The notes beneath the pieces are model-generated. The model had not been told where the DNA came from and made no database searches. It was given only the letters and a program-made list of their open reading frames with translations. A DNA stretch of 35,493 nucleotides, taken from the NCBI GenBank assembly GCA_000934665.2, contig KZ537957.1:186001-221493 (forward strand), given 5' to 3'. Shown here in pieces: positions 12,701-35,493 of the stretch (its first letter is position 1; each line of letters starts with the position of its first letter). The position numbers were made by a program, and so were the translations under genes. Source of the DNA: Catajapyx aquilonaris (taxonomy: Eukaryota).

Positions 12701-13062
12701 GTCACAACTGGCCCGAATAAATCAAGGTACCTTTATATAGGGTACAAGTTTTCAACAAAAGAACGCGATCCCTCCGTAGTTCTAGGTCATTATCGGGGTC
12801 ACCTTGTCATTGGCTAGATGGCATGCGCGTAAAGATGTACTGTGTGAACTTGGCTTCTTCTCGCATGCACACTGCCTATTATTTTGCAAGAACTTTGATC
12901 GTGGCCTTCTCAGGGTGGCGTGCCTTGCCCTTGAGACGATGGGTTGACCTACTGGCTGGAATCTTCAGTTTTACAATCAGCGAACTTTCTATAATATATT
13001 CAGTATATGCGAAAACTGGTTTTGCTCAGGCCTAAAATAAATGCGATGTTTTGTCTCCATAG

Positions 13063-13465
13063 CAAACCCAAGTGTGTTCTTCTTCATCGACTGAAGAGAG
13101 CCCAGCAGTTCTTCCATGTCCTGCCTCACCTGGAGGCTTCCTTGGAGTCCTTACGCAATTTGGGGTTCCTGTATGCCATCCAGCATGGTGCCAGGTTCGT
13201 GTTCGATGCATACACGGACGTCTTCGAAGATGCGGGTGTCCCTGTGCACCAGTACAAGCGGGAGATGAAGAGGCAGATGCAGTCTTTAACTCTGGACGTA
13301 TCTTTAGGCCTGGTGTACGAAAAACCGTACACTCGCCGGGTGTACAATCCATACACTCACTTCGGACGATCTGAACTTTGGACACATGGCTTCAGGCCTA
13401 TAAGAAGCCGTGAGATCTTCCAGTCATACCGAATATGTGAAGCCAGACCACCATCAATGGAAAAG
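13063..13465 (+). CDS. STELLO/DUF288-like gene, internal exon
   Basis: ctccatag| acceptor, aag|gtaatc donor. RNLGFLYAIQHGARFVFD and VYNPYTHFGRSELWTHGF match the STELLO motifs 'KN.GYL.AIQHGAK.IFD' and 'NPY.HFG...WPRG'. Confidence 0.88.
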
Positions 13466-14923
13466 GTAATCACACGTGCTGACTAATAAAGTCAACGACT
13501 TCCAGAACCAATCCACGTCCCACTTCCGATTCTTTTTCCTCGAAACGGAGGTCAATATTTAGTTTTAATCTTGTCCTACTGACCCTGAAAGGGAAAGCCC
13601 GACATGTTGCGCATGAGAAGCAATCCAGGTTACCAACTCCGTAAATTCGAGCCTACATCTTAACAGGTGAGAGAGATGTATAAGAAAAAAAAAATGGGCA
13701 CGTGATGGGCCACATTTCTCACTCAGACAAGGGTGAAAATATTGTCATTGTGATTCAGTCGTGCGTGTAACAGCCAGTGACCACTTATCACTTGGGACAG
13801 GAAACTGGATGACCTTCGTCGTAATATTGTGGCTAGATATCAAAAAATTGCGATTTTAGATGTAAAAAGTGGTTACATAAAAGAAGCGATGGATCAGTGT
13901 CACATGTGTTGCGGCAGGTTGTTGACATACGCGTACTGTAGATGTTGATTTGTTGTTTTGTTGGACAAACATCTGTGCCAACAAATTCCATCGGGCTTTG
14001 ACGTGAAAGTCGCGATGACAGGCTTATAATGACCCCGGGTGTTTATCCACCACTCACAGTATGTGTGTCACGGGTTAAAGTTTAATTGAGTCTATTTTGG
14101 GACAATGCCATGTATTGATGGGAACAACATTGTGAAGTATCAGCAGGCTCGATTTGAAACCAGTCATAAGATTAGGTGTTCTAATATGCAAAATTTCAAG
14201 TTTTGATAGATTTCTAAATGGCCCGTTTGTACTGTAAAGTTTGCAGAAAAAAACTTGTTGTACCAGTATGTGCAGTCAACAATATTTTGAACAATACCTT
14301 GACCTGATAATTTGATTCGGCTTAACTCCTGCGCACTTCGCTTACATCACACAAAAAATATGGCATGCATAGCCAAAGGAAATTCTTACGTTAATTTCCC
14401 ACAGTAAAGAATAAGTTCCGGTTGCTTCATTTAATTTTTTCCCCCTCAATGATACATCAGAGTTACATCAGCGCACCTTGGCATTCATCTTAAGCAACAC
14501 ATCTTGGAAGTTAGCCAAAGTGAAATATCATGAAATGCATTCTGCACATATGATTCGGCATGTTTTTTTTTTCCTTTAAAAAAAGGCTCAGAAATAACAA
14601 TATGCACTTTCCATCCATCCATCTGACAAGAGCAGGATGAACATTGTTAAGCTGCAACACATTATAGTATTCAACGTCACAACCAGAGCGAGAAATTGCA
14701 TTCCCTGATTCGTGAGGCAGGACTTCCTCAGGCATACATTTCGTGTCGCTTTTTTTTTTCATTCAGTGTGTTAACAATGAGAGACCTGTCATTCGCTTTC
14801 AACAGGGTCGTCGACATGCTGAAATTGAATCTGCGCGCAAAAATGCGGGTGTATTCTCCGAAAATGGAAATTGTAGACAAACAGTGTTGTGAAACAATTG
14901 GCTGATTGTTATGCACATTTCAG

Positions 14924-15171: not shown

Positions 15172-15874
15172 GTAACCCTTGTTTCGTTATCGCGCTCTTT
15201 TGTATGTAAATATTGTAGCAGGTTGCAGAAAGTGGGTAACGGAGGGGAAAATTCCACCGTAACTGCAATTACACAGTTAGTGAGATTTGCATATGGCTCC
15301 GTTTGATAAACAGAGTTTGAAGAAACCTAATTCGTCACATTTTAACGGGTAAGTTATGTCCTCAGGTCTAGTCAAATATAATGCAGACACATTGTCTGCG
15401 GTTGCAATGTAAAGAGCTTCTGGCTCTGCGTCTGCAGAATGGTTAACGACTTTGCAAGGTAAATTCAATGTAAGGCTCTTGCTGCAGGCTATATGTGTGA
15501 AACAAAGTTACTTGGGGAGGCAGGCCCCAGTAAGGTAGGCTCTCAACAATTTTTGCGGCGTTATTTCCCATTTCATGAAATCCAATTGAATGGGCGTGTA
15601 AGCATGAAAGACTTACCATAAAGATACTGGGTGATGCCGTCATAACACTGCAGTGTAGGCTCCCTGGGGCATTACTGTAAAGCACTGTAAAGAGAAGTAA
15701 AGCGTTACCCATAGGTGTTTGAATGGTTATGTGAATAGCCATAAACTACACATTGATGTCAATGCAAACTAGTTTTATACCGCAATCTACATGTTGAAAT
15801 TGTGACAGAAAAAGTTACTGGACTGTCAACTACTGATATAGCTGAAAATTAATATCACTCTTGCCTTGATCCAG

Positions 15875-18092
15875 GTGGTCATCTGAAGTGGCCAATTCAA
15901 CAGCTCTTGAGACTAGTGCAGAGCTGTCATCAGTCCTGCTGAGGTGGCGGTGCAGGACCAGGTCAACCCTCCGATGCCTCCAGCAGCTGTCCAGAGATTT
16001 GCAAGGGTCTGGATTTCTCCATGAAAGAGGTGTCACCTTCTTGGAGGCCTGGGCTGCTGACCTACGCCGGGTGCACTACCTGGAACCACCCATGGTGCCT
16101 AGACGCAGGGGTCATGCCAACCCGTGCCTTGGAGCAGATGGGCTGTACGGTGTGTCCTTCTTCCCAGCCTTGCCTCCAGTCTTGCCATCGCCACAGCAGC
16201 AGATCAGGAGGAACATGACGCTGAGACGGTATGCTGAAAGTGAGAGCCAGCTGGACTGGATCCGGAAGCTGGACCAGGAGCATGATGGGAGGAGGAATGA
16301 GACATACCGCCTCGATGGGGTGGTACCAGAGTCGGAGCTTCTGGAGGTGGCACTGGAGGAAGACGAAGGGGGTCAGAGGGCAAGGGAGGTGGACAATGAT
16401 GAGAGGGTGGAGGAGATTGAGCGGGAGGTGGAGAGGGAGGAAGGAGGATCCGTACTAAGGGAGATGGCTGACAACATGTGCTTAGGATTCTCATCACTGC
16501 TGCCATATCAGCCGACCACTGTTTTCTCCAGCATCCTGCTGGTCGTGGTGTTCACAAACCTCCATTACGATCACATACCAATGTTGGAGGTGATCTACAG
16601 GGCAAATTTTCCCAACATGCTATACTGTGGTGGAAGTGGGGCACCTCCAGAATCCATTGAGATATTCCTGCGCAAGTACCAGTCAGCAGAAAACCGCTCC
16701 TTCTCTTACCTTCCAACGCACTCCAAGGCAAGCTACGAGTGTGTGTTGGGTGCTCTGGAAATGGGATATGATGTTGAGGGATACCTGGTCGTCACTGACG
16801 AGGCATTGCTCAGCACCTGGATGCTGCCAGAGTTGGACCGCAACATGTGGTGGGCAGGATCAACTGCACTGCACAAAGTGTCACGCAAAGAGGCCAAGCT
16901 CCTGGATCCTGCAGGTCAGAAGTTCAAGCGTGGAATGGAAGGAATGCTGTCGGCATGGAAGTTCTTGGCGTACCTGCTTGGAAACAGGGATGCACTGCAT
17001 GATCATAATGTCCACAAGAGAAGTGTGGAAGAAACTGAACCAGTAGGTCGTGAAGTGAATGTATCGGCTGAGGTGCCAAAGGTGGAGGAAGATGCAGCGG
17101 CAGACGTGGTCGTAGTGCAGGAAGAAAGTGACGCTGAATCAGGTCGTGCAGAGGGGGTTCTGAAGCCAGGGGCACCATTTCTGGATCTGCTCCTCACCAG
17201 GTGGGATTCAGGAGAGTCAACTTCTGAACCCAGCTTGCCATCATCATCTGAAAGTCCAACTTCATCTTCATTGCCACCATCTCAAAATGAGTCCATAGTT
17301 GAAGTAGAGATACACGTCCCTCCATACCGCTTGGACAACCAGGAAGAAGGCAGCAAGGTCGAAAAGGAGGATTTACCATCTGAACAAACACCAGAAGATG
17401 AATCTGTAATCATAATTGCACAGCCTGGAATTGAACCAGAAGAGACACCACACAACACCACTCAGGAGGTGCCAGAAGAGGAAGGTTATGATGTGGACAG
17501 AGTGCTCCAAACGCTGCAGGAGATTTACACTGATCTGCTGTCACGTGTTGGGACAGTTGACAGTGCTGAAGATGAGGAGCAGGAAGAGGAGGAGGAGGAA
17601 GAAGAGTATGTCATTGAGGAAGATGGCAGGGTGGCATTCAGGCTGAAACCCCGTGAGTTCCGCCACCTTCGATGCGAGAGGGAAGGACTTGCTGAATTGT
17701 GCACCATACTGCGACGATTTGTACGCCGCCTGGGGAGATCAGTGGGACGCGAGTTACGTCTCTTTTATGACAGTGTACCAGCCTACTACGTTCCTGCAAA
17801 AGCCTCTCGTGGGTTCTACCTTCTAGCAAACATCCTTTTACACCACGGTGTTCTAGACGAGTTGGGTCTTCCTTTGCTATTGAGGGGTCTCACTTCTGGC
17901 AATGAGGGCTGGCTACCCCTCAGCAAAACCAAGTTTGGACTAGATGCATCATCACATATAGACCCCAAGTACCCCCTGTTCAAGGAAGACGCACACTTCC
18001 TGTACCCTGTCAACCTGCACGACATATACACAGATGCACACCTGCAGAAGGTGTTCTGCCTCAAGTACCTGCTGCACGTTCTCAAAACGTGA
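15875..18092 (+). CDS. STELLO/DUF288-like gene, large terminal exon (second domain plus acidic insertions)
   Basis: atccag|g acceptor in frame with the 734-aa ORF. ILLVVVFTNLHYDHIPMLEVIYRANFPNMLYCG and GYLVVTDE resemble the C-terminal half of STELLO-like proteins. Stop TGA ends at 18092. The four exons give about 1016 codons. Confidence 0.85.
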
Positions 18093-18909: not shown

Positions 18910-19299
18910 CTACTGTAACACCAGTGTTTCCATCCCAGGCTCCCTCCTAAGTAACTCCATCTGTGCCTGGGCTGTTTTTGCAGCAGTCATGCACCTTTTC
19001 TTGCATTCAAAGAGTTTGGAAACTTCTTCCCACAGCTTCATCTGACGTGCATTTTCTGCATGGCTGTCCCTCACTACTGCTGAGTGTTCCTTCAGAATCA
19101 GGCTCCTCTTTTCTTGCTCGGCGATTTTCTGCAGGTACTTCTCGCGCATGGAGTTCTTCCTGTCACGGACTGTTCCAGACACATACAAGCGCATCTCATC
19201 AGCTGCCTGCTGCTGGCTGGCCTGTAGGATCCGCACCTGAGCCTCCAAGAGATGGTACTGACCCTCGTTATTCAAGATGTCCTGCTCCATCTGACGTAC
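18910..19299 (-). CDS. IFT81: Intraflagellar transport protein 81, exon 4 (last)
   Basis: Acceptor ctgcag| then VRQMEQDIL...SMREKYLQKIAEQEK...QMKLWEEVSKLFECKKRC...ETLVLQ*, matching the IFT81 C-terminus. Confidence 0.93.
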   Translation of the reverse strand, partial: VRQMEQDILNNEGQYHLLEAQVRILQASQQQAADEMRLYVSGTVRDRKNSMREKYLQKIAEQEKRSLILKEHSAVVRDSHAENARQMKLWEEVSKLFECKKRCMTAAKTAQAQMELLRREPGMETLVLQ

Positions 19300-20166
19300 C
19301 TGCAGTAAAGAATAGTGTGAGTCGCAATGCATTGGTCAATTCTAAACATGTTTTTCCAACAAATACTGCATTGTCAATTTCGTATCCATGTCAGAAAAAC
19401 GGAAGCTGTGTGTCAAGTGACTTTCCAAAAATTCTATGTGAAAACATGCCCACAGTGTTGAAGCAATGAGTAAAAAGGCTTTATTTTATTTTTGTACTTA
19501 CTTTATGATGGACATGTTTTCATATGGAAGCAGTAGTTTGTCAGTACAAGCAAGGTTAACTGGTTGTTAGAATCCCCCAATCTGGTGGTAATACCAGCAC
19601 GGCAGCACAAGGTCACAATATGCCAGCGTACGAAAATCATAGGTCCACCAGTCTCGAAACTTTTGGATAGGCTGACCACAAATGAAACAGGGGTCAAAAA
19701 AACAGGAAGTTGAAGTTGTCATGCTGTGATTACAAATACTGGGAAATGATTAGCTGCCATATTAATATCATTTAGAGGGTTTTTTTCTGAGAACTAGTAA
19801 TTTATGCAATTAAGTCACTTTCAGCATTTCTCATTCAAGAAATGACTCGCATAAACCTACTTAACAGCAACTTTTTTTATTTTTCTATTCTTTAGCTAGT
19901 GTCTTACTTAAATCATTAACTATTGATGATTTGGTGTCGGCACTAATTTTTACTTTCACTTTTTTCTTTCAGGAGTGGTTGCACTACCTCCAGAATTTGT
20001 CAGCTAAAAGAGAGGACTAGTTGTTATCAACAGTGAATAACAAATGCTTTGGGCTATTTTTTTCTGGAGGCAGTGCAACCTGACCTAAGTAACCTATCCA
20101 ACAACTAATTACAATATCTTGCTTATTTCATCTGTGCAAATAAATAAATATCTTGCATAATGGTAC

Positions 20167-20862
20167 CTCATTCTCCATCTTAGTCAGATTCAAATCCAGT
20201 CCAGCTGAGACGGTCTCAAATGCTTGTTTCCTCTCATCGTAGTGCATCTGCATCTCCTGCGCCTGCTGCCTGAGTGGACGCAGCTCCTTCAGCACTGGGG
20301 CCAGCCTAGCCTTCCGCTCTGCTATCCTCTGAGTCAGCTGCACCACCAGAGATGACATTTCCTCCAGGGTCTTCCCCTTCACCTGGTCTACATCTGCCTT
20401 CTCTGTGGACACCTTCACCAGCTCCTCCTTAGCATCCCTGAAGCCTTCCACTCCCCGTTGGGACTCCATGGCTGCTAGAGCCGAATTGATGGTCTCCTCC
20501 TTGGTTCTAATTATTTCCAGGGAGCGGACAAGGACTCCATGCTCTGACCTCAGCTCAGACAACTCGGCCCGCTGTTTCTTGTAAACAGAACTTTTGGTTC
20601 GGAGCTTGTTAACGTACAGCTTGAAGTCATCCCCACGGAGAACTGTATCACCCCCAAAGGTCTTGAGCTGCTCCTGCTTCTCATTGGCTTCCTCCTGAAG
20701 GCGGTCCGCCTCCTTCTTGATGCGGTTCAATTCCTCTGCCAGGTTGTCCTTCTTACGGCGGGCAATGGCTGCTTGCTGGCGGAACATGGCCAGCTTGTCC
20801 TCCATCGGGTCATTCCCCATCATGCGCTTCTCGGTCCGGGATGTTATCTCCGCACTCACCTC
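20167..20862 (-). CDS. IFT81: Intraflagellar transport protein 81, exon 3
   Basis: KRMMGNDPMEDKLAMFRQQAAIARRKK, VLRGDDFKLYVNKLRTKSSVYKK, KGKTLEEMS and LAPVLKELRPLRQ are IFT81 signatures. Acceptor gcgcag|, donor gag|gtacca. Confidence 0.95.
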
Positions 20863-21116
20863 CTGCGCAAAGGTGAAAGGTTCCCATAATTAACTCAGAG
20901 GATATCACCAGATTATGATTGCCATATAATTGTTACATCGCAACCATTTCCAGATTGCATAAGTGATAGTCTTGATAATCTGACCTAAATGAGGTCAATA
21001 ACTGGTTCAATGAACTTAATTAGAATGTCAGATTTCCTGAGTATGGGACTGGCCAAAAATTGGCAGCATAACAACTGTTCAGGTAGAACTAGCGATTATA
21101 TTTTCAAAATCCTTGC

Positions 21117-21819
21117 CTGAATCTGCCTGTTAATGTGGTCCACATCTCCTCGTGCAAGAGGTTCAGCAACAACACGATGCAAGGTGGCCACCCTCTTCCG
21201 CTTCTCCGCTATCTCTTTTGGCAGCTTTTCAGCCAGCATGTACCGGTCAACATCCACCTCTTCCTGCAATTTCTGCATGATGGTCTCTGGTGTTGCCCCT
21301 GCCACACTCTTCTTGACATCCTCCAGCTGCCTTTGCAACCGCAGAAGTTTCTGCTCGGCATGCGCATATCCAGCAGTTTGCTCATGCAGTTGGGTTGCAA
21401 GCTCCTTCTCCTTCTCCCTTTCTCTGCGCAACCTACGGGCCACCTCCAGCATGGCGTCCTTGTTAGGAACTCCCTCCACCTTGCGATGCATTCTCTCGAT
21501 CCTCTTCATCACTAGCTCCTTCTCATTCTCCATGGCATCTATATCTTTGCGCAGCTCCCCGGTCGAAAAACCAGAATTGAGCATGGACTCATACTCGCGA
21601 TGCGTAGCCTTGAAGTTCTCAATCAGCATCTCGTACTGCTCGTACAGCTCATCAACATCAATGTCCCCACGCATCTCGTCTGGTACCTCCACCCGCACCA
21701 GGTAACGTGCCAGGTAGGTTCGCTTCTTCAGCTCCGGGATGCGCTGCAGGAGCCACTCCAGTATGGGGTACATGACTTCCTTGTCTGCCTGGACCACACA
21801 CTGCCTGAACTGCGACGCA
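21117..21819 (-). CDS. IFT81: Intraflagellar transport protein 81, exon 2
   Basis: PILEWLLQRIPELKKRTYLARYL and SGFSTGELRKDIDAMENEKE. Acceptor tattccag|, non-canonical donor cag|gcaagg. Confidence 0.93.
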
Positions 21820-21876
21820 CTGGAATAGCAGACGAGTAATGAGAACATGGGATGGGCAGATGCATGCACCACGTAC

Positions 21877-22121
21877 CTGAGGTGCTCCGGTGGCTTGTAC
21901 TTGAGTATCCGCAGCATTTCGAGCATCCTGACTGCTGTGTCCTCTGGCACCTCCTCCCTGATGTCCACCTTGTTCTTTGGGTCAACCTCTGTCAGCACGT
22001 CGTTGAGCACCTGCAGGAGCTGCTCGGTCTGCAGGGCGTCGAAGGAGATGACGTTGAAGTTGGCCCTGTCGAAGGGGGGCTTGGCCAGCTCCCCCACTAT
22101 ATACTTGAGCCTCTCGCCCAT
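21877..22121 (-). CDS. IFT81: Intraflagellar transport protein 81, exon 1 (CH-like domain). Whole CDS 2034 nt = 677 aa
   Basis: MGERLKYIVGELAKPPF...FNVISFDAL...LLQVLNDVL...DIREE...RILKYKPP is the IFT81 N-terminus. Donor ag|gtacgt. An in-frame upstream ATG at 22166 would add MPPPPPPPPTTPSAT. Confidence 0.95.
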
Positions 22122-22399: not shown

Positions 22400-23513
22400 A
22401 CTTACAGAAAAACCAAAGTACTGGGCTCCTTCGTGGTAGTCTTTGGTGCATCCGAAGTGAGGGTAACTTTATTCGTGACTGGATGCACCAGCATGTTGTC
22501 AGTTTTTATGTCAAAATGTATCACACCAATGTTTTGCAGTGCAAACGCAACGTCCCGCACCTGTCGGAAAATTTATTTGGCCTCGGATTCCCGTAGTCCT
22601 TGGCGATGCTGGTCGTGGAGGGTGATGGCCCCCACGGGCCTCTCCATGATGAACACCACATCGTCCCCGACTTAAAACACATTATACAATTTCACCGCAC
22701 CCTCCACGTTAGCCACTTTGCTCATTATTGCCGCCTCTACTGGTACGCGGTCCCCACTGCTCTTCCATGTCCACCGCGTCCGCCTTGACGTATTTCCAGG
22801 CAGCAGGCTACATATATGTAGTGTACCGGTAACACTTATCAAGGAAAGGCAGAGGAGAACGTGTCACAGGGGGTGTAAGGAATGAATATTGAGTCGAGAG
22901 TAATTGGAGTAACTGATGTATTGAGGCAAATAGCTGTTACAGAGTGTAATAAGGTGAGAATTGACGAGGATGGGGTAGGTGCAGGAGGAGGAAGAAGGGT
23001 GTCATCTGGACTTCTGGAGTGGGATGAAATCCAGACTATCACTATAGCTAACTCAAAAAGGCAGGGGAAAGCAGGAGGGTGCCCGGGTGCCCAAGAAGCA
23101 TGGGGGTGGCGAGGTCAAGAGAGGATCGTACCGTTGGGTAGTTGAGCAATCAGGGTCGTGACATTCACTGAGGCGGAGTTTTTATGGGATGTAGGGGCAG
23201 GAATTATTGGACTGAATGGTGGAGGGCAATAAATAGGGGGTAGCATGGAAATGGCAGGCTGGTATGTAAGATGGGCAGAAGAAAGGGAGTGGGGTAACGG
23301 ATACCGTTACAGTAGCCAACGCCGCGCCGTCCCCCCGCCATCAACTACCCTCCCGTGGCCCCCTTCCCCCAACTCGACCCCGAGTGTGAACATTTGCTGG
23401 AAGCGTGTTGTGGTCAGCAGATAGGGGTCTTCCTCCACTTCGATGACCACCTCCTCCTCCTCCTCCTCGACGTCAATGACCATCACCACCTATTCCTCCT
23501 CCACGTCGATTAG
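22400..23513 (-). pseudogene. PIM-like Ser/Thr protein kinase pseudogene (no introns seen; frameshifts, stops, LTR insertion)
   Basis: Joined - strand frames read FTLGVELGEGGHGRV (Gly loop) / [LTR] / KYVKADAV..WKSSGDRVPVEAAIMSKV / VKLYNVF*VGDDVVFIMERP (PIM-type ERP hinge) / LRESEAK*IFRQV...IGVIHFDIKTDNMLV (catalytic loop) / frameshifted (D)FGC. The 3' boundary is approximate. Confidence 0.85.
22822..23311. mobile_element. Solo LTR, 490 bp (Gypsy-like by target-site duplication length)
   Basis: Termini TGTACCGGTA...TACCGTTACA (TG..CA, 9/10 inverted match), flanked by a 4-bp duplication GTAG (22818-22821 and 23312-23315). Interrupts the kinase between the Gly loop and the catalytic Lys. Confidence 0.85.
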
Positions 23514-24501: not shown

Positions 24502-24651
24502 GAGAGCATTACCTAGAACCCATTATTACTTCTGTTTAGAGCTGTTCTGCGACAGAAACACAAATAATAGCCAAAATCGATTTTTAATATATCGGTTTCT
24601 TGGATATCGATTCTGCTCCTTATCGATATATTTACAAGTGTGCCCATCACT

Positions 24652-24751
24652 CCACCACAGCAGCCTCTTCCACCACACCCTCTTGCACCACAGCCTCTTG
24701 CACCACACCATCTTGCACCACACCCTCTTGTCCCACACCCTCTTGCGCCAC
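24652..24751. repeat. 15-bp minisatellite (CACCACACCCTCTTG)x~6.5
   Basis: Directly visible tandem units with a few substitutions. Confidence 0.9.
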
Positions 24752-25535
24752 AGCTACAGCCACGTTTGGGCCGGGGGCGTTGACGTCAGCATGAACTTTA
24801 TTTTTGAAGACTCCCTGTGTTTGTACATGCTATACAGCCTCTGACCTGTCTTCCTTAGCGTGCTGGAGACCCGACAGCGTGGCTTTATGGCGGCCGCCAC
24901 CCGATCCCAGAAGCACCCAGGGCTCCCGCAGGACTTTACCGACACAGATGGAGTCACGGCCAAAATTGCCCTGGCCGCCGCGCCGCCACGGCCTCGTCCA
25001 CGGGTATGACCATGCGGCACTTCATGACTACAGAAAAATATATTACTCATTAGTGTGAGGAATGGCATCAGGAAGTCATGGACACTTCCTGGAAAGTGTC
25101 CATGGCTTCCTGTGCAGAAGAAGAAGGAATTAAATATTAGGCCTATATTGGGTCCAGTTTATCAGACGTAGACCACGATGGATATTTGGGGCGAATCGAT
25201 GACAATATATTCTGTCAAAATCAAATAAAAATTCTCGGACATTTTCTGGATGGAAGGTTATAGGTTTTATAAATCGTAATAGCTTACGAACAATTTAAAA
25301 AATTTGGTTTTTAAATTTGTGAGTCATTTTTTAAAAGTCATTTTCAATACGAAACTGCAAATAAGTTTAAAAATTCCTATTTTTACTGTTCCCGGCGCGG
25401 AGGTATAGGCGAGAAGTAGGCTACAGTTGAATCTGGATAAGTAGACTACATGATTTTTCTTACGAGAAATTTCTAACGCTTATTCCTGCGTCCTGGATAG
25501 GGTGAAGGATAATAATATTATTCAGATGTTTCCCA

Positions 25536-27919: not shown

Positions 27920-28235
27920 CGTGGTCCGCCCAGGGGCGACGCGACGGAAGGAGTGCGTCAAGGGATTGGCAGGTAAGATGGGTTACACGTAGCGTAGTAG
28001 GATGAGTGCAAGGTAAAGGAAACGTATGCCACGTAATAGAGTGTAAGAATATTTTATTTCACAGAAATACATTGAACAAGATTTGATCATTCGGCGAAAG
28101 TGTATGCAATTGATATTTGATGAATTTCAGATAAATGATGCGATTTTCCCCGTGAATGTACCGTTTTTATTTTATTACTATATTTGCCTCAACTGCTTCA
28201 ACATTCAACTACTGACGTTTCACTCTAAGGATACC

Positions 28236-28877
28236 TCACGCCTTGTCCTTGTCCTTGCCCTTGAAGCACTCATCGCCGAGTGCATCGAATCCGGAGCAGT
28301 CCTTACCGTCATATTTTCGCTCTGTAACGTACCAGCATTAGTAAACATTCAAAAATAATATTGGGGTGGATCACTTACGTTTCTTGACGCATTCTACAAC
28401 CTTCTTTTTGGCATCTTCAGGGACGTCCTTTGGAGAGCAGCCTTCAACGTACTGAGCGACTTTTTCTATATCAGGAGTACGATCGGGCTTCAGCTGTAGA
28501 TGGCGTTTAGTAGGGAATTATTTCAAGTTCCACATTTATAACCAATAACATGCAGTAGCGTAGGCCTACTTACCATGCTCATCTTGTCCATGACACACTG
28601 AATCTGGCACTGAAATTAGAAGCAGGTATCACACAATTGTCCAGCACAATCTCCATTGCGTTCCTACCTTAGGTTTATCCTTGGTTTCTTCCTTGCATGG
28701 TTCTATGAAATCTTTGGGGGTTTTTTGTGGGCACTGTAAAAAAAATTGATATCAATTTTTGGACCTGCAAGAAATGTACAGTGATATACCTACCTGGGCC
28801 GAGGCAGCGCCAGATTCGTCTCTGAGAAACAAAGCGACGGCACAGAGCAGGAGAAGTAGTCTGCAGATGTGGTTCAT
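28236..28877 (-). CDS. Secreted Cys-rich OBP-like protein, copy A (128 aa, 5 exons, most divergent)
   Basis: Exons 28877-28794, 28733-28668, 28609-28574, 28493-28379, 28321-28236, all GT-AG, phases 0/0/0/1. MNHICRLLLLLCAVALFLRDESGAASAQ|CPQKTPKDFIEPCKEETKDKPK|CQIQCVMDKMSM|LKPDRTPDIEKVAQYVEGCSPKDVPEDAKKKVVECVKK|QRKYDGKDCSGFDALGDECFKGKDKDKA*. Confidence 0.85.
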
Positions 28878-29689
28878 GGTGACTGGTACCTTGTCGCAGA
28901 AATAACAGCGATTTTATGTTGAACCTGATGCTTCGTTTTTCTACGGTTCAGAAGACATCTACAATGCAGCGTTTGCGTCGAAACCGAACTAAATGAAGAT
29001 CCGGATCTTTGTCCCAATCAGAGGCTTTATGTTGTAAAGCACTCTACTTGTTTGTAGCACGCACTTTGTTGCGGTATATGAGTACGCTAATAGTAAAAAT
29101 TGGCTAAATTGAGACATACCTGCGAAAAGAGCATTGTTCGAGTTTGGCTGTAAAGAACTTGTGGGCACAAGCACGGAATTACACTCGTATGACATCAGTA
29201 TATGACGTCCGAATTTTTAAGTACAGCGGATTCGGTTGCATCAATGCTTGAAGGACAGTTTAGCTCTGTAGGTTGGGCTGGTCATACGCTATTTTTAGTT
29301 GAGGAATATTCGAATTTGCGGTTATACAAAGCCTTTTAGCGAAAGCAAATGTTGGGTACTGATATGTTTCTAATGCGAATAATTCAAAATACATTGCATC
29401 TAATGCGTGGCGTTGTGTGGATTGTTGTAACAATAAAACCTATATGGATGTCAGCTTAATTCTGAAATGCAATGCACATGTAAGTCCCTGCTTCATTTCT
29501 CAGGGCAATGCCTAATAGGCCTACTCCAGCTACTGTATATTCCCAATTTTCTTGATTGAAATCAGATATATCAAAGCCATATACTTGCATACTTTTATTG
29601 TTTGCACTGAAAGGGAATGACATGTAAGCTACATGCTGCACACGCTTTTCTTCATGCCAAACCCATAAGACAATCCCTTATCCACAATG

Positions 29690-30603
29690 CTAAGGTGCTG
29701 GTCCTGGTGGTCCATAACACTCATCCAAATCTTCGTAAGTGCTGCATACATTTTCATTGCATTTACTCTCTGGAAAGGTGAAAAGTGCATTAGTTTCTGA
29801 AATGTACTGTGTATTGCAGTAAGTATTACACCCGCATCGGGTGCAATTGCGGATTCTCCTGCGTCAAGTTGTTGCTCTGTTGCGTCAAATTAGCAGACCA
29901 GAAGAACTTGTCATTAATTCCCCAATTATCCCTCCCCTCCTCTCCAGGGCCTGTATATCTGTAAATCTAGTTACCCTGTTACTTACCTTTGCCTTTCAAG
30001 CAAAGTTGCATAGACTCAGGTACTTCTATTGGGGGACCTTCGGGACCGTTGGGACCATAGGAACTAGGACACTTTTCCAGCTCCTCAATGAATTTGTCGC
30101 TGTCCAATGCACCGCCCTCCTTCAGCTGCAACAGTGGCACAAATCAGACGAAGCAGTTTTGGAATCAAGCTTATGCGAAAATAGTTTCCTGGTAATGAGC
30201 AGTGATCTGATAGAAACTTACCACGCCAGCCATCTTGAGTGAGCATCTCTCAGGGCACTCCTAAAACGAGTCCAGCAAAATTAATGACGTGGGTGGCTAT
30301 TGATTTAGTGAGTAGGCTACTGGTATATGCTTACCTTATCCTCCTCTTTGCATTTCTCGATGTTCTGGGGGGAAAACTTACACTGTAAGAAAATGACGTC
30401 ATTATAAAATTAACAGAAATTCTGAAGTCGGTAGTTCTTGCAAATACACCTGTGCAACATCACTAAGGTAATCAAGAGTGTATCTCTGTTCCTGTGATGA
30501 TTTGATCTACCTAGAGTCTTGAGTAAACCTGACTTACGTCATCAGCCTGAACCTGATTGCTCAGGAGAAACACCGTCACGCAGAAGAAAATGACTGTCTT
30601 CAT
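29690..30603 (-). CDS. Secreted Cys-rich OBP-like protein, copy B (123 aa, 5 exons)
   Basis: Exons 30603-30538, 30382-30335, 30260-30222, 30125-29987, 29769-29690. MKTVIFFCVTVFLLSNQVQADD|CKFSPQNIEKCKEEDK|ECPERCSLKMAGV|LKEGGALDSDKFIEELEKCPSSYGPNGPEGPPIEVPESMQLCLKGK|ESKCNENVCSTYEDLDECYGPPGPAP*. Confidence 0.9.
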
Positions 30604-30628
30604 GGTTATCACGGAATGAGAAAACCAC

Positions 30629-30660
30629 ACTGATTTGCAAAGTGTCACTCTTATTTTATA
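30629..30660 (-). promoter_or_regulatory. TATA box plus TCAGT initiator of copy B
   Basis: On the - strand, TATAAAA starts at 30660 and TCAGT spans 30633-30629, so the TATA begins 29 nt before the Inr A. Homologous TATAAAA at 32721 (copy C) and 34779 (copy D). Confidence 0.7.
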
Positions 30661-31665
30661 GCCTTGCTGTAATATAGAGATGACTGAGTATGTAACTATG
30701 TCACCTTGGACGTGTTGACAGTGTGCCTTACGTGATGCGAATTATGTAATTTCCTTCTGATTCGTTACGAACAAATGCATGAGATTGGGTTTCAGGGTGT
30801 GATAGAATTCATGGACATGTAAATCACGCGAATGATCACATCCTGCACTGTACCTAGAGTGTACTATGTATCAAATAAAGACGTAACTTTTGGTTACCCA
30901 GTATTTTTCATGCTTTTGCAAGACCAGAATTCGTGTGACAAGGAAATGCTTCCGATGGCATGTCACTGATGACAAGATAGTAGAGGAGAGATATTTATCG
31001 TATGGGTTAAAGATTATTATGGATATTATTTTCCTTTCACTGTGCTTTCTACGAAATTCCAGACATTTCAAAGTTCATTACGTATTGGAGTTTTAGAAGA
31101 TGCTGCGTTCCTTATAATCTCACATCACCGTATGCACAGAGTATGCACAGGTATGCAGGATACCGTATACGCCTATAAGGTAATGCCTTTCCTCCATCAA
31201 ATTTTTGCTAGCAAAATGAGAGAGGTCATCCAGGAAGAATATTTGACCTAGGTTGCCTTCTACACTTGTGAGAATAGAACTGACAGCTGGACCAATCAGT
31301 GTTCATTTTTTGTTACGTGTTATTCTCCGCCGTTTCATCCTAAATCACCCTTTTAATTAGGTATACTATAAGATATAGGACTTAGACAAGAACTCTGAAA
31401 ACAATGTCATATACAGATATACTTGCCTTTTTATTGTTCGTACTGAAATCGTACGGGGACCTATAGGTTGTTCGAAATTTAATTTGTGATCATCCATTTT
31501 ATACTGTAAAACCCTAATACAATAGCTCGTAGTTACCAACACCATACACTACTATAGGCTTACTTGCACATCTGCATTTTTATTGTTCCCACTGAAATCG
31601 CATGACATATTGACAGCCTTTATGCTCACCCCTGCACCACACAGTCACATACCAAACCCACAAGG

Positions 31666-32665
31666 CTACGGTTGTCGTTCAAAACACCGTTCCAATGGTT
31701 TGTAAGTGTCGCACTTGCCTTCGACGCATTTACTTCCTGTAAGGGTGGAAAGTGCGTAAGTTGATTAATTGCACCGGACAAGTCAGAATATTGTGACTAC
31801 ATCAGTATCGGCAGAAATATCGTGTACTCTCCTGCGTCAAGTTGGTACTCCTGTACCGCCAAATTTTAGTAGGAGACCAGAAGGGCCTATTACGTGGATG
31901 TGTAACTTACTAACCATATCTCCTGTTTTATCCCTTCTCTCCCCAATGTACCAACATGAGTAGTGGATATCTGCGACATGTCCACCGATACGGATGTAAG
32001 CTTATAATATTATGAAACACACGATATGTTATGCATTGCATACTGTGTGAATGGTAATTATAGTCACGCTGTTCCTTATACCTGCGTTTTTCACACAATC
32101 TTGCATTCCCTGAGGAGGTTCTATCGCTTTACCGTTAGGACCAGGGCACTTTTTCAGCTCCCCAAAGAATTTGTCACAGTCCAATGCACCACCCTCCTTA
32201 AGCTGCATGGAACAAAATAATATTAGACATGGTGATTTTTGTTATAGATTTTGTGGAAATATCGGTGATTGAGCACTGTTGGTAGAAACTTACCACCCCA
32301 GCCGCCTTCAGAAGACAACTAAATCGGCAATCCTAAAATGAGTTTAGTGAAATTAATGACGCTGTACTTGTTAAATTAGGGAGGTTTATGGTTACCTTTT
32401 CTTCACCAGCACAATTTCTGAAATTCGGGGGTGAAAATTTACACTGCAAGAAAATGAAGTCGTATAAGTGACATTAAAATTATAACTAATGTTCTGAAGT
32501 CGGTTGACCTTGCAACTGCAACACCTCTACGGTAATCAAGAGTGGATCTCTGTTCAGGTGGTGATTTGATCTACCGAGTCTTTAGTAAACCTGACTTACA
32601 TCATCTGCCTGAACTTGATTGCTCAGAAGCACAGCCACGCAGAAGAAAAAAATGACAGTCTTCAT
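31666..32665 (-). CDS. Secreted Cys-rich OBP-like protein, copy C (114 aa, 5 exons)
   Basis: Exons 32665-32600, 32443-32396, 32332-32294, 32202-32082, 31736-31666. MKTVIFFFCVAVLLSNQVQADD|CKFSPPNFRNCAGEEK|DCRFSCLLKAAGV|LKEGGALDCDKFFGELKKCPGPNGKAIEPPQGMQDCVKNA|GSKCVEGKCDTYKPLERCFERQP*. Confidence 0.9.
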
Positions 32666-33365
32666 GGTTTACCCTCAAGTGAGAAAATGATAATCATTGC
32701 AGACTTTCACGTCTTTTTATAACGTCGCTGTGCCATAGGGATGATTGATGATGTAATTGTGTCACCTTGCACTTATTGATGGCGTGTCTCATATGCGTGT
32801 ATGCTTGAGAGAGGATGTGGGATGTGGGTTTGTATAGTTTGTTGCATTATATGGGACAAATGCAAAAAAATGTGAAAAATTGAATCAACGCAGGTGGAAC
32901 TGTTTTATTAAAATGTCATCGAATTATGAGGTATATTGCATTATTTTGATAATAATCGGAGACAGGAGAGGAGTAGCCCAGTTTGCCAACTAAATGAGAG
33001 AGACCTGTATACTCTGGGTCCAGCCTGGGACAACCAAGAAGAATATTCATTTCAACCAGGTTGCCTTCAACACTTTCAAGAATCGTACTGTAAGCTGGAC
33101 GTTGATTCTTGTCCAATCAGCACTTATTTTTTCATTACGTGTGACATGGGGACACGATTTTTCGCAATTTAATCATAAATCATTATTTTCATAAAACTGT
33201 AATGATATAAGACGGTCTAATAAAACGAGTACGCAGATAATAAGGCCATATACAGTAGGCTACATGCATTTTTATTGTTCGTACTGATATCGTAGTACAT
33301 GTAGACGACATGATGCACATGATTTACTTCACACCAAACCCATAAGATCATTCTCATCCACCATG

Positions 33366-34726
33366 CTAAGGTTTCTGTGGTGGTTTAAAACACTCTTTCA
33401 ATGATTGGTAAGAGTCGCAATCGTTTTCATTGCATTTACTTCCTGTATACGTGAAAAGTGCGTTAGTTTCTGAAATGTACAGCGTGATACCAGGGAGCAT
33501 ATACTACATATAGTATATGCTCCCTGGTATCACACTGTACATTTCAGTGTTAATATTGCATCCGTATCTGTAGTAATATCGAGGACTCTGTGTCATGTTG
33601 TTCCTCCTGTACTGCCAAATAATAGCTGTTCCTTACCTTTGTCTGCCAAGCAGGTTTTCATAGAGTCAGGTATTTCCATTCCCCCTGGGGGTCCTCCGGA
33701 AGGACCAGGGCACTTTTTCATCTCGGTAATGAATTGTTCACAGTTCAACGCACCACCCTCCTTCAGCTGCGTGGAACAATTCAGACGTGGTCAAATAAAG
33801 TTTTAGAAGCAAAATTTTCTAAATATATACAGGGTGTTTCCGAGCTATCTTTAGAAACTTCTAGGGGTAATAGAGGGGACCACGACAAACATATTTCATA
33901 TAGGAACCCGTGTCCGGAAACGCCATCTAGAGGGGGTTCTCATAGACGAGGAACGGGTGCGCTCAGATGCTTCACGCGGGAGGCGCTAGTAGAGCAGACT
34001 GTTTTCTTGATAGATGGCGCTCTAATAGTAAGCACCAATGCGATGTGCCATAACCTGGCAACAGCAGAGCCATCTAGCAACTAAAGTCTACCTCCTAGGA
34101 GACGCGTGGAGAGTAAACAACAGTTCTGTTGCTGCCAGGTTATGGCGTATCGCGTCGTTGTAAGCAAACAACGACGCGATATGCCATAACCTGGCCATCT
34201 GTCAACAAAACAGTCCGCTCGCCTAGCGCCTCCTGCGTGACGCATCTGAGCGCACCCGTTCCTCGTCTATGAACCCCCTCTAGATGGCGTTTTCGGACAC
34301 GGGTTCCTATATGAAATGATCACTGTTGGTAGAAACCTACCGTTCCAGCATTCTTGAGCAAGCATTTTCCAATGCATTTCTGTAATGAGATCAGTAAATT
34401 AATAATTTAGTACTATTAAATTAGAGAAGTGTTTAGTTACCGGATCCTTTTCCGCTGTCTTGCATTTCTCCATGTTCGCGACCGAAAACATACACTATAA
34501 CAAAAATGATACTGTGAATAATGATTTTAAAATTAACTGAAGTTCTGAAGGAGATTGTCCTTTCAAATACAACACCGCTACTGTAATCAAGAGTGACTCT
34601 CTATTCGGGCTGTGATTTGTTCTACCGATATAGTATTGAGTAAACCTGACTTACATCCTCGGCCTGAACGTGATTGCTCAGAAATAGCACAGCCATCACG
34701 CAGAACAATATCATGAGTGTCCTCAT
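33366..34726 (-). CDS. Secreted Cys-rich OBP-like protein, copy D (123 aa, 5 exons)
   Basis: Exons 34726-34655, 34494-34441, 34379-34341, 33766-33637, 33442-33366. MRTLMILFCVMAVLFLSNHVQAED|CMFSVANMEKCKTAEKDP|KCIGKCLLKNAGT|LKEGGALNCEQFITEMKKCPGPSGGPPGGMEIPDSMKTCLADK|GSKCNENDCDSYQSLKECFKPPQKP*. Confidence 0.9.
33470..33547. repeat. Intronic hairpin: 37-bp arms, 4-nt loop, 1 mismatch (intron 4 of copy D)
   Basis: ctgaaatgtacagcgtgataccagggagcatatacta-cata-tagtatatgctccctggtatcacactgtacatttcag. Confidence 0.93.
33830..34317. mobile_element. Tc1/mariner-type foldback MITE in intron 3 of copy D, right end truncated
   Basis: Starts TA|CAGGGTG. Long inverted arms run from 33893 to 34317 (atttcatataggaacccgtgtcc.../...ggacacgggttcctatatgaaat). 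Absent from the equivalent introns of copies B and C. Confidence 0.85.
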
Positions 34727-35140
34727 GGTTTATTCCCAAGTGAGAAATTCATATTTGCAGAGTTTCACACCGTTTTATAGTCCAGTGGGCTGTATTGCCT
34801 GTATAAAGCTGAATTGTACCACCTGGCCGCACCTGGTACGTATTGATAGCATGCATTCCGTGATGCAAAATTGCGTAATTTCCTTCTGATTTGTTAAGAA
34901 CAAATGCATGGGTGTAGTTATTCAGTCAGGATGATAGAAAAGTCTTGAATCACGTGTAAATCACAACGACTGATCACAACTTGCACTATACCTACAGTGC
35001 ATACAGGGTACCAAATATAGATACGTTTTGTTGATCACTGAATAGAATTTCGATTCATTTAGCACGAAATGTTTCCGGTGACGTCACTGAAAAAAATTTG
35101 ACTGAAGGATCAAGGAGGCCATTTATCACACTCATTAAAC

Positions 35141-35493
35141 TTAACCCTTTGCTGCCTACGGCCATCCTATGATTTCCGAGCTTGCATTGCTGGAGGGCCT
35201 ACGGCCATCATATGATGTCCGGAGATTTGCCCTGCCAACTTGGGTCATTTTTCAACGCAAAAAATTTCAACCTCACCGATTTTCTTGAAATTTGGTGCAT
35301 TGGTAGCCCACCCCAAGGGATGAAAAACGCACCTATAGTTACCTGATCAAAAAAATGACCTCGTGACCCAATTTGAGGGGGGCAGAGGTCAAATTATAAA
35401 ATTTCGACCTCACCGATTTTCTTCAAATTCGGTGCATTGGTAGCCCACACCAAGGGATGAAAAACGCACCTATAGTTACCTGATCAAAATGAC
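35141..35493. mobile_element. Left end of a piggyBac-like non-autonomous element with internal tandem repeats (runs off the window)
   Basis: TTAA|CCCTTTG start, subterminal direct repeat gcctacggccatc.tatgat.tccg x2, and a ~137-bp tandem unit x2 (from ~35262 and ~35399). Confidence 0.65.

Follow-up and report, generated by a model that had tools for sequence, protein, structure and literature searches.

What kind of protein family is encoded by the four small genes that lie head to tail near the end of a 35,493-nt stretch of contig KZ537957.1 (assembly GCA_000934665.2, Catajapyx aquilonaris, positions 186,001 to 221,493 of the forward strand)? We refer to this whole stretch as the window, number it from its first letter, and call the genes A to D. 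They occupy 28236-34726 on the minus strand, between the stop codon of gene A, which starts at 28236, and the gene D start codon (ATG) at 34726. We found that the four tandem genes are real, spliced and transcribed, with models that are supported at the exon borders listed below. The family is fast-evolving, secreted by all signs, and appears to be without detectable sequence relatives in searches made at the level of single exons. Our favored reading, to which we assign a probability of about 0.4, is that the proteins belong to the arthropod superfamily of odorant-binding proteins (OBPs) and OBP-like proteins, as a branch that has become shorter and has diverged very far. Such kinship is plausible but unproven, and the resemblance is partial.

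The gene models are given below together with the contigs that bear on them. These contigs come from 2 sequencing runs of the same organism, X5, which is a run of a kind not on record, and X1, which is a DNA run.

28794-28877, minus strand: gene A exon 1, with the ATG and a hydrophobic leader; GT follows and the frame is open
28668-28733, minus strand: gene A exon 2, starting with a Cys codon and containing 2 Cys; AG precedes, GT follows, phase 0
28574-28609, minus strand: gene A exon 3, 36 nt, with C-x3-C; gene model
28379-28493, minus strand: gene A exon 4, 2 Cys; model and an X5 contig in which the piece 28379-28493 is joined to 28200-28321
28236-28321, minus strand: gene A exon 5, with C-x9-C and the stop codon; model and X5 contig
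28166-28176, minus strand: gene A poly(A) signals, 2 overlapping AATAAA, 60 and 65 nt past the stop codon
30538-30603, minus strand: gene B exon 1, leader; model and X5 contig piece 30538-30621
30335-30382, minus strand: gene B exon 2; model and 87 X5 contig letters equal to exons 2 and 3
30222-30260, minus strand: gene B exon 3, with C-x3-C; model and the joint from 30125 to 30222, seen in X5 only
29987-30125, minus strand: gene B exon 4, 139 nt; model and X5 contig
29690-29769, minus strand: gene B exon 5, with C-x4-C-x8-C and the stop codon; model only
30655-30660, minus strand: gene B TATAAA, 57 nt before the ATG; the X5 contig extends to 30621
29594-29599, minus strand: gene B AATAAA, 91 nt past the stop codon
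32600-32665, minus strand: gene C exon 1, leader; model and 153 extra letters of a 454-nt contig, equal to exons 1 to 3
32396-32443, minus strand: gene C exon 2; model and X5 contig
32294-32332, minus strand: gene C exon 3, with C-x3-C; model and X5 contig
32082-32202, minus strand: gene C exon 4; model and X5 piece 32081-32202 joined to 31557-31735
31666-31736, minus strand: gene C exon 5, with the stop codon; model and an X5 contig ending at 31557, about 22 nt beyond AATAAA
32716-32721, minus strand: gene C TATAAA, 56 nt before the ATG
31579-31584, minus strand: gene C AATAAA, 82 nt past the stop codon
34655-34726, minus strand: gene D exon 1, leader; model only
34441-34494, minus strand: gene D exon 2; model only
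34341-34379, minus strand: gene D exon 3, with C-x3-C; model only
33637-33766, minus strand: gene D exon 4; gene model
33366-33442, minus strand: gene D exon 5, with the stop codon; model and X5 piece 33259-33441, which stops at the acceptor and is followed by 53 further contig letters
34774-34779, minus strand: gene D TATAAA, 53 nt before the ATG
33271-33276, minus strand: gene D AATAAA, 90 nt past the stop codon

The 4 genes were built on a single plan, with exon borders checked by coordinates. Each gene consisted of 5 exons of 36 to 139 nt, the introns started with GT and ended with AG in 16 of 16 cases, and the intron phases were 0/0/0/1 in every gene. All spliced frames were open and yielded products of 128 (A), 123 (B), 114 (C), and 123 (D) amino acids. 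No fifth copy was found when the 4 proteins were compared with the whole window by tblastn. The TATAAA box present 53 to 57 nt upstream of the ATG in genes B, C, and D had no counterpart within 200 nt before the ATG of gene A, and AATAAA followed the stop codon at a distance of 60 to 91 nt in all 4 genes.

Conserved blocks other than the TATA box were also noted in the 60 nt located 5′ of the ATG in genes B (30604-30663), C (32666-32725), and D (34727-34786). Within 150 nt upstream of these 3 genes the aligned identity was 75% to 83% in pairwise comparisons, and over 250 nt it was 59% to 71% in a three-way alignment. The blocks, which are lacking in gene A, may represent a common regulatory element of genes B, C, and D.

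The X5 contigs joined 28321 to 28379 (exons 5 and 4 of gene A), 31735 to 32081 (exons 5 and 4 of gene C), and 30125 to 30222 (exons 4 and 3 of gene B), the last of which skipped 96 nt with the ends CT..AC, corresponding to GT..AG on the minus strand. Furthermore, the 153 extra letters in the 454-nt X5 contig of gene C were exactly the sum of exons 1 to 3, and in a 266-nt X5 contig of gene B the pieces of exon 4 and exon 1 were separated by 87 letters, as many as exons 2 and 3 have together. Gene D was represented by one low-depth X5 contig, which stopped at the exon 5 acceptor and ran on for 53 letters elsewhere; neither gene D exons 1 to 3 nor gene B exon 5 was covered by X5 contigs. The X5 contigs of genes C and D terminated 13 to 22 nt beyond AATAAA. 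In contrast, an X1 contig was colinear with the window over 28200-32683 and contained none of the joints. Since the X5 joints fall at the modelled borders, whereas X1 is colinear, X5 therefore contains spliced copies of at least genes A, B, and C; for gene D, this holds in part. The first-pass annotation of the window had drawn a tandem array of 4 genes with this exon plan, these phases, open frames, exon sizes, hydrophobic leader exons, TATA boxes in B to D, and downstream AATAAA, and it was correct on all of these points; junctions of genes A, B, and C were recovered in spliced X5 contigs at the borders given above.

Intron 3 of gene D is long (574 nt) because it houses a nested inverted-repeat element, similar to a miniature inverted-repeat transposable element (MITE).

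33893-34317, no strand assigned: high-copy inverted-repeat element (MITE-like) in intron 3 of gene D; from nested inverted arms and DNA word depth

The arms of this element were 47 nt with 98% complementarity and 88 nt with 88% complementarity. The DNA word depth ranged from 59,000 to 139,000 compared to about 36 in the flanks, which shows that the element is repeated in this genome in very many copies, and many variant joints were seen among the DNA contigs at 33893-34317. A near-perfect 37-nt hairpin, 97% complementary and with a 4-nt loop, was observed in intron 4 of the same gene (33470-33547).

Exon 1 encodes a hydrophobic N-terminus of 20 to 27 amino acids with small residues at positions -3 and -1, which by inspection has the features of an N-terminal signal peptide. 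It ends in V-Q-A in B, C, and D and in A-S-A in A, just ahead of the first cysteine, with whose codon exon 2 opens in each of the 4 genes. The mature parts were 94 to 103 amino acids long, with isoelectric points of 4.4 to 8.1 and grand average of hydropathy (GRAVY) values of -0.73 to -1.14, and contained about 19% ILVFMWY, 30% to 44% charged residues, and 13% to 20% Pro plus Gly. Eight cysteine positions were common to the 4 proteins; C and D contained 2 more, and B, with 9 cysteines, had lost one of that pair. The B, C, and D proteins were 52% to 61% identical to each other and only 22% to 30% identical to A, which nevertheless shared the exon plan and the cysteine scaffold with them. Cysteines accounted for 7 of the 16 invariant columns in the alignment.

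The mature parts have diverged rapidly. In a three-way DNA alignment of genes B, C, and D, conservation was highest in intron 1 (80.9%) and in the leader exon (80.5%). The mature-peptide exons were 68.6% identical over 846 aligned columns, compared to 73.1% over 1388 columns for the introns. These identities leave out gapped columns, which flatters the introns, and we read the conservation of mature-peptide exons and introns as about equal. The mature exons are thus not better conserved than the introns, and the constraint on the mature part therefore appears to be weak or diversifying, with the exception of the scaffold. The ratio of nonsynonymous to synonymous substitution rates (dN/dS) among the 3 genes was 0.37 to 0.54.

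Mature exons that are no better conserved than introns, together with an unpaired ninth cysteine in B, would be compatible with transcribed but non-functional duplicates, either young pseudogenes or non-coding transcripts. We consider this very improbable, given that 4 five-exon frames have stayed open with all splice sites intact, that spliced transcripts are present, that the cysteine scaffold has been retained in A despite its low identity to the other proteins, and that dN/dS is below 1.

The divergence pattern also counts in favor of another explanation, namely that the genes encode lineage-restricted, small, secreted, disulfide-rich effectors that are unrelated to OBPs, such as antimicrobial or defence, toxin-like, or reproductive-fluid proteins. 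These would act by binding to a macromolecule or a membrane and not as carriers of small ligands, and their cysteine likeness to OBPs would be convergent. A conserved leader combined with fast divergence of the mature peptide is a pattern seen in venom and immune peptides, and in the array it is indeed intron 1 and the leader exon that are best preserved. The presence of 8 to 10 cysteines in about 100 amino acids and the hydrophilic, highly charged, and Pro/Gly-rich composition also argue for effectors, whereas a dN/dS below 1 overall argues against them. We regard an unrelated, lineage-specific effector family and kinship with OBPs as equally likely. A tandem array with fast divergence is also family behaviour typical of OBPs.

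The classic OBP motif is given as C1-x23-35-C2-x3-C3-x27-45-C4-x7-14-C5-x8-C6 in the excerpted text of PMC3149280, and alternative ranges of x25-44, x36-43, and x8-19 are given in PMC7474526, which like all other sources below is cited from excerpts. The first-pass annotation had recognized the cysteine skeleton of the PBP/GOBP family in C-x3-C, a LLKAAGVLKEGGALD.DKF stretch, and C-x11/12-C-x8-C, with x9 in A. These elements are present in the sequences. C-x3-C occurs in all 4 proteins and is followed by LLKAAGVLKEGGALD.DKF in gene C and by variants of it in B and D, and the C-terminal part reads C-x12-C-x8-C in B to D, with one further cysteine within x12, and C-x11-C-x9-C in A. When set against the published ranges, the C2-x3-C3 and C4-C5 spacings (the latter 11 to 12) agreed in 4 of 4 proteins, and the C5-x8-C6 and C3-C4 spacings in 3 of 4 each. 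However, the skeleton as a whole did not stand, since the full six-cysteine motif was found in none of the 4 mature proteins.

Several observations weigh against OBP kinship. The C1-C2 spacing was 16 to 21 in all 4 proteins and in none of them within 23-35 or 25-44, the C3-C4 spacing in B was 48, which is outside 27-45, and A deviated in having x9 between C5 and C6. Insect OBP polypeptides are 120 to 140 amino acids long according to the excerpt of PMC8222343, which does not state whether the leader is counted, compared to 114 to 128 amino acids for the precursors and 94 to 103 for the mature proteins examined here. There are 8 to 10 cysteines rather than the 6 of OBPs, with an odd number (9) in B. 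The hydrophilic composition, as seen in the GRAVY values, the low share of ILVFMWY, the charge and the Pro plus Gly content, is unlike that of a carrier with a hydrophobic pocket. Finally, helical amphipathy, which would be in line with OBP kinship, was weakly above that of shuffled sequences in a hydrophobic-moment scan (z 1.5 to 2.4), a signal that is too weak to serve as evidence of fold. The absence of the strict motif from all 4 proteins, in turn, favors an effector family.

On the other side, the C2 to C6 part of the motif was present in C and D. When those sequences were shuffled 20,000 times, it arose in 1.6% to 1.8% of cases; we consider this match suggestive, not strong. Counted from the second cysteine of C-x3-C, the proteins have a small residue or Gly at +6, Gly at +12, hydrophobic residues at +7, +8, and +14, and an acidic-Lys pair at +17/+18, a spacing that we take to be shared with several insect OBPs and use as a lead, not as a test. 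Both this Gly/hydrophobic spacing and the arrangement C-x3-C ... C-x11/12-C-x8/9-C are as OBP kinship predicts and thus count against unrelated effectors, as does the finding that the cysteine patterns considered for other families do not fit.

All homology searches were made with single-exon pieces of 38 to 46 amino acids and provide weak evidence in either direction for divergent families. None of the 4 exon-4 peptides matched a Pfam family at E <= 0.1, PF01395 of the OBPs included, and a profile of exon 4 gave 6 weak matches in the PDB (E 0.036 to 6.3), none of which was an OBP. Both results speak against OBP kinship, though weakly at this query length. A word-indexed search of 5.8 billion clusters, in longer proteins, gave no matches to gene C exon 4. 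When gene B exon 4 was compared with 1.84 billion representative proteins, 3 matches were obtained, all of them to repeat proteins, which were judged spurious because the score arises by summing short stretches. The Atlas search with single exons gave no usable match, and none of 140 pattern matches in metagenome contigs was confirmed. No Rfam family was identified within the window, and the motifs of the family were found nowhere in the literature searched.

The lack of relatives in the cluster, representative, metagenome, and Atlas searches is in line with a lineage-restricted effector family. It might also be explained if the genes belonged to some other, already described family of small secreted proteins that single-exon searches fail to recognize, as the queries were too short for divergent families. 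The absence of Pfam matches at E <= 0.1 for all 4 exon-4 peptides and of a fitting cysteine pattern among the families considered makes this explanation decidedly unlikely.

We infer that the hydrophobic leader encoded by exon 1 is cleaved off and the products are secreted. The mature proteins would be braced by four disulfide bonds in A and up to five in C and D, on a scaffold of eight cysteines whose positions are fixed relative to the exon borders. If the genes are indeed divergent relatives of OBPs, the proteins would probably adopt a compact, mostly helical, extracellular OBP-like fold. They could bind and carry small molecules in a body fluid, and the duplicated copies may each have acquired a specificity of their own as the residues other than cysteine diverged fast.

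The significance of such a family depends on the host lineage, which was placed with the help of the gene for IFT81, located at 18913-22121 on the minus strand. This gene consists of 3 large coding exons and encodes about 697 amino acids; it is intron-poor, in contrast to the five-exon plan of the small neighboring genes A to D. The best named matches to IFT81 were from malacostracan crustaceans, with 52% to 54% identity. A tree was inferred from 29 rows and 676 columns, drawn from a match list in which branchiopods, barnacles, remipedes, diplurans, and many others were absent. In this tree, the IFT81 protein fell within Pancrustacea with a support of 100/99 and did not join the Malacostraca clade (100/100); in the best tree it was placed beside a copepod clade (71/89.8). 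Approximately unbiased (AU) tests rejected neither a union with Malacostraca (p 0.064) nor one with the insects plus the springtail, that is, Hexapoda (p 0.128), and were marginal for a union with the 5 sampled insects alone (p 0.048). As judged from IFT81, the host is a pancrustacean, weakly placed on the copepod side. The first-pass annotation had considered that the host might be a non-hexapod arthropod such as a crustacean; a hexapod position, including that of a basal hexapod, is likewise compatible with these tests.

Adjacent to IFT81, a 740-amino acid single-exon open reading frame (ORF) at 15870-18092 on the plus strand gave a sub-threshold match to the STELLO glycosyltransferase family in Pfam (24.8 bits, cut-off 27.8). 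Most of its relatives were environmental proteins without a name; the sole named relative came from a springtail and matched 27% of the query at 50% identity. A 163-amino acid ORF upstream of it, at 12995-13486 on the plus strand, had been guessed to be a second STELLO-like piece but had no Pfam match. The protein library contained no near-identical protein to either IFT81 or the STELLO-like ORF, which is consistent with the proteins of the host being outside that library. Between IFT81 and the array, short tandem repeats were observed at 23431-23507 (33-nt unit, 2.3 copies) and 24651-24754 (15-nt unit, about 6 copies), within a GC-richer stretch. A unit of about 120 nt was seen by eye to occur twice near the end of the window (35140-35493), and was not reported by the tandem-repeat finder.

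According to the excerpt of PMC5850775, OBPs have been reported in Hexapoda only and are missing from 13 crustacean genomes and transcriptomes. Daphnia is described as being without OBPs in the excerpt of PMC3134979, which links the origin of OBPs to life on land. OBP-like proteins are known from chelicerates and myriapods, with none in annotated crustacean proteomes, as far as the excerpts of PMC5381604, PMC8214410, and PMC8222343 go. Against this background, it would be of interest if genes A to D were members of the OBP superfamily from a pancrustacean outside the hexapods, the first of their kind, forming a shortened, eight-cysteine, hydrophilic branch, a proposition that we consider rather unlikely as it stands. 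In that case, the branch would have been overlooked because the genes are split into exons of 36 to 139 nt and diverge fast. It would connect hexapod OBPs to the OBP-like proteins found in chelicerates and myriapods, and would imply that the crustacean stem retained the superfamily instead of losing it, perhaps with a tuning to ligands that are soluble in water. A real crustacean relative of OBPs would thereby alter the presumed history of soluble carriers in arthropods and call into question the tie between OBP origin and life on land drawn in PMC3134979. The array is a good lead, possibly related to OBPs, and not a demonstrated non-hexapod OBP. Even if unrelated to OBPs, it would represent an expressed, secreted family without relatives in exon-level searches of protein databases, and it bears on claims of gene-family absence that are based on annotated proteomes.

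How do the proteins compare with the known carrier families? Like the chemosensory proteins (CSP / OS-D), they are small secreted proteins of an arthropod, and carriers of this family are known in crustaceans (PMC8214410). However, CSP identity could be ruled out, as the pattern C-x6-8-C-x18-19-C-x2-C excerpted from PMC3149280 is not present and none of the 4 proteins has an x2 spacing. The OBP-like proteins of chelicerates and myriapods, which were originally detected through BLAST or profile likeness to insect OBPs, are described in the excerpted parts of PMC8222343, PMC5381604, and PMC8214410 as resembling OBPs weakly, lacking one helix of the classic form, being few in each genome, and having ligands that are unclear. 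In Varroa VdesOBP1, for example, there are 5 helices and 6 cysteines, which are paired C1-C6, C2-C3, and C4-C5 and reach residue 141 (PMC8222343). When compared by description only, the A to D proteins differ from these in having 8 to 10 cysteines rather than 6.

More than 6 cysteines on an OBP-like core is a feature that they share with the Atypical (9 to 10 cysteines) and Plus-C (8 cysteines) OBPs of insects, of which the former have a long C-terminus and the latter a conserved proline with the extra cysteines (excerpts of PMC7474526 and PMC3149280). Unlike both, the proteins studied here fall short of classic OBPs in length, with the extra cysteines located before C-x3-C and in the middle of the protein. 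The classic insect OBPs (PF01395, PBP/GOBP) are characterized by a six-helix fold with one hydrophobic pocket and by the disulfide pairs C1-C3, C2-C5, and C4-C6. Compared to them, the N-terminal part is shorter, with the mature protein starting 0 to 2 residues before the first cysteine, depending on the gene, and the mature sequence of 94 to 103 amino acids with 8 to 10 cysteines is hydrophilic and contains a Pro/Gly-rich central loop. What they have in common with the classic insect OBPs is a signal peptide and a small size, a C-x3-C core with C-x8-C near the C-terminus in 3 of the 4 proteins, C3-C4 and C4-C5 spacings that mostly fall in the published ranges, and an organization into tandem arrays that diverge fast.

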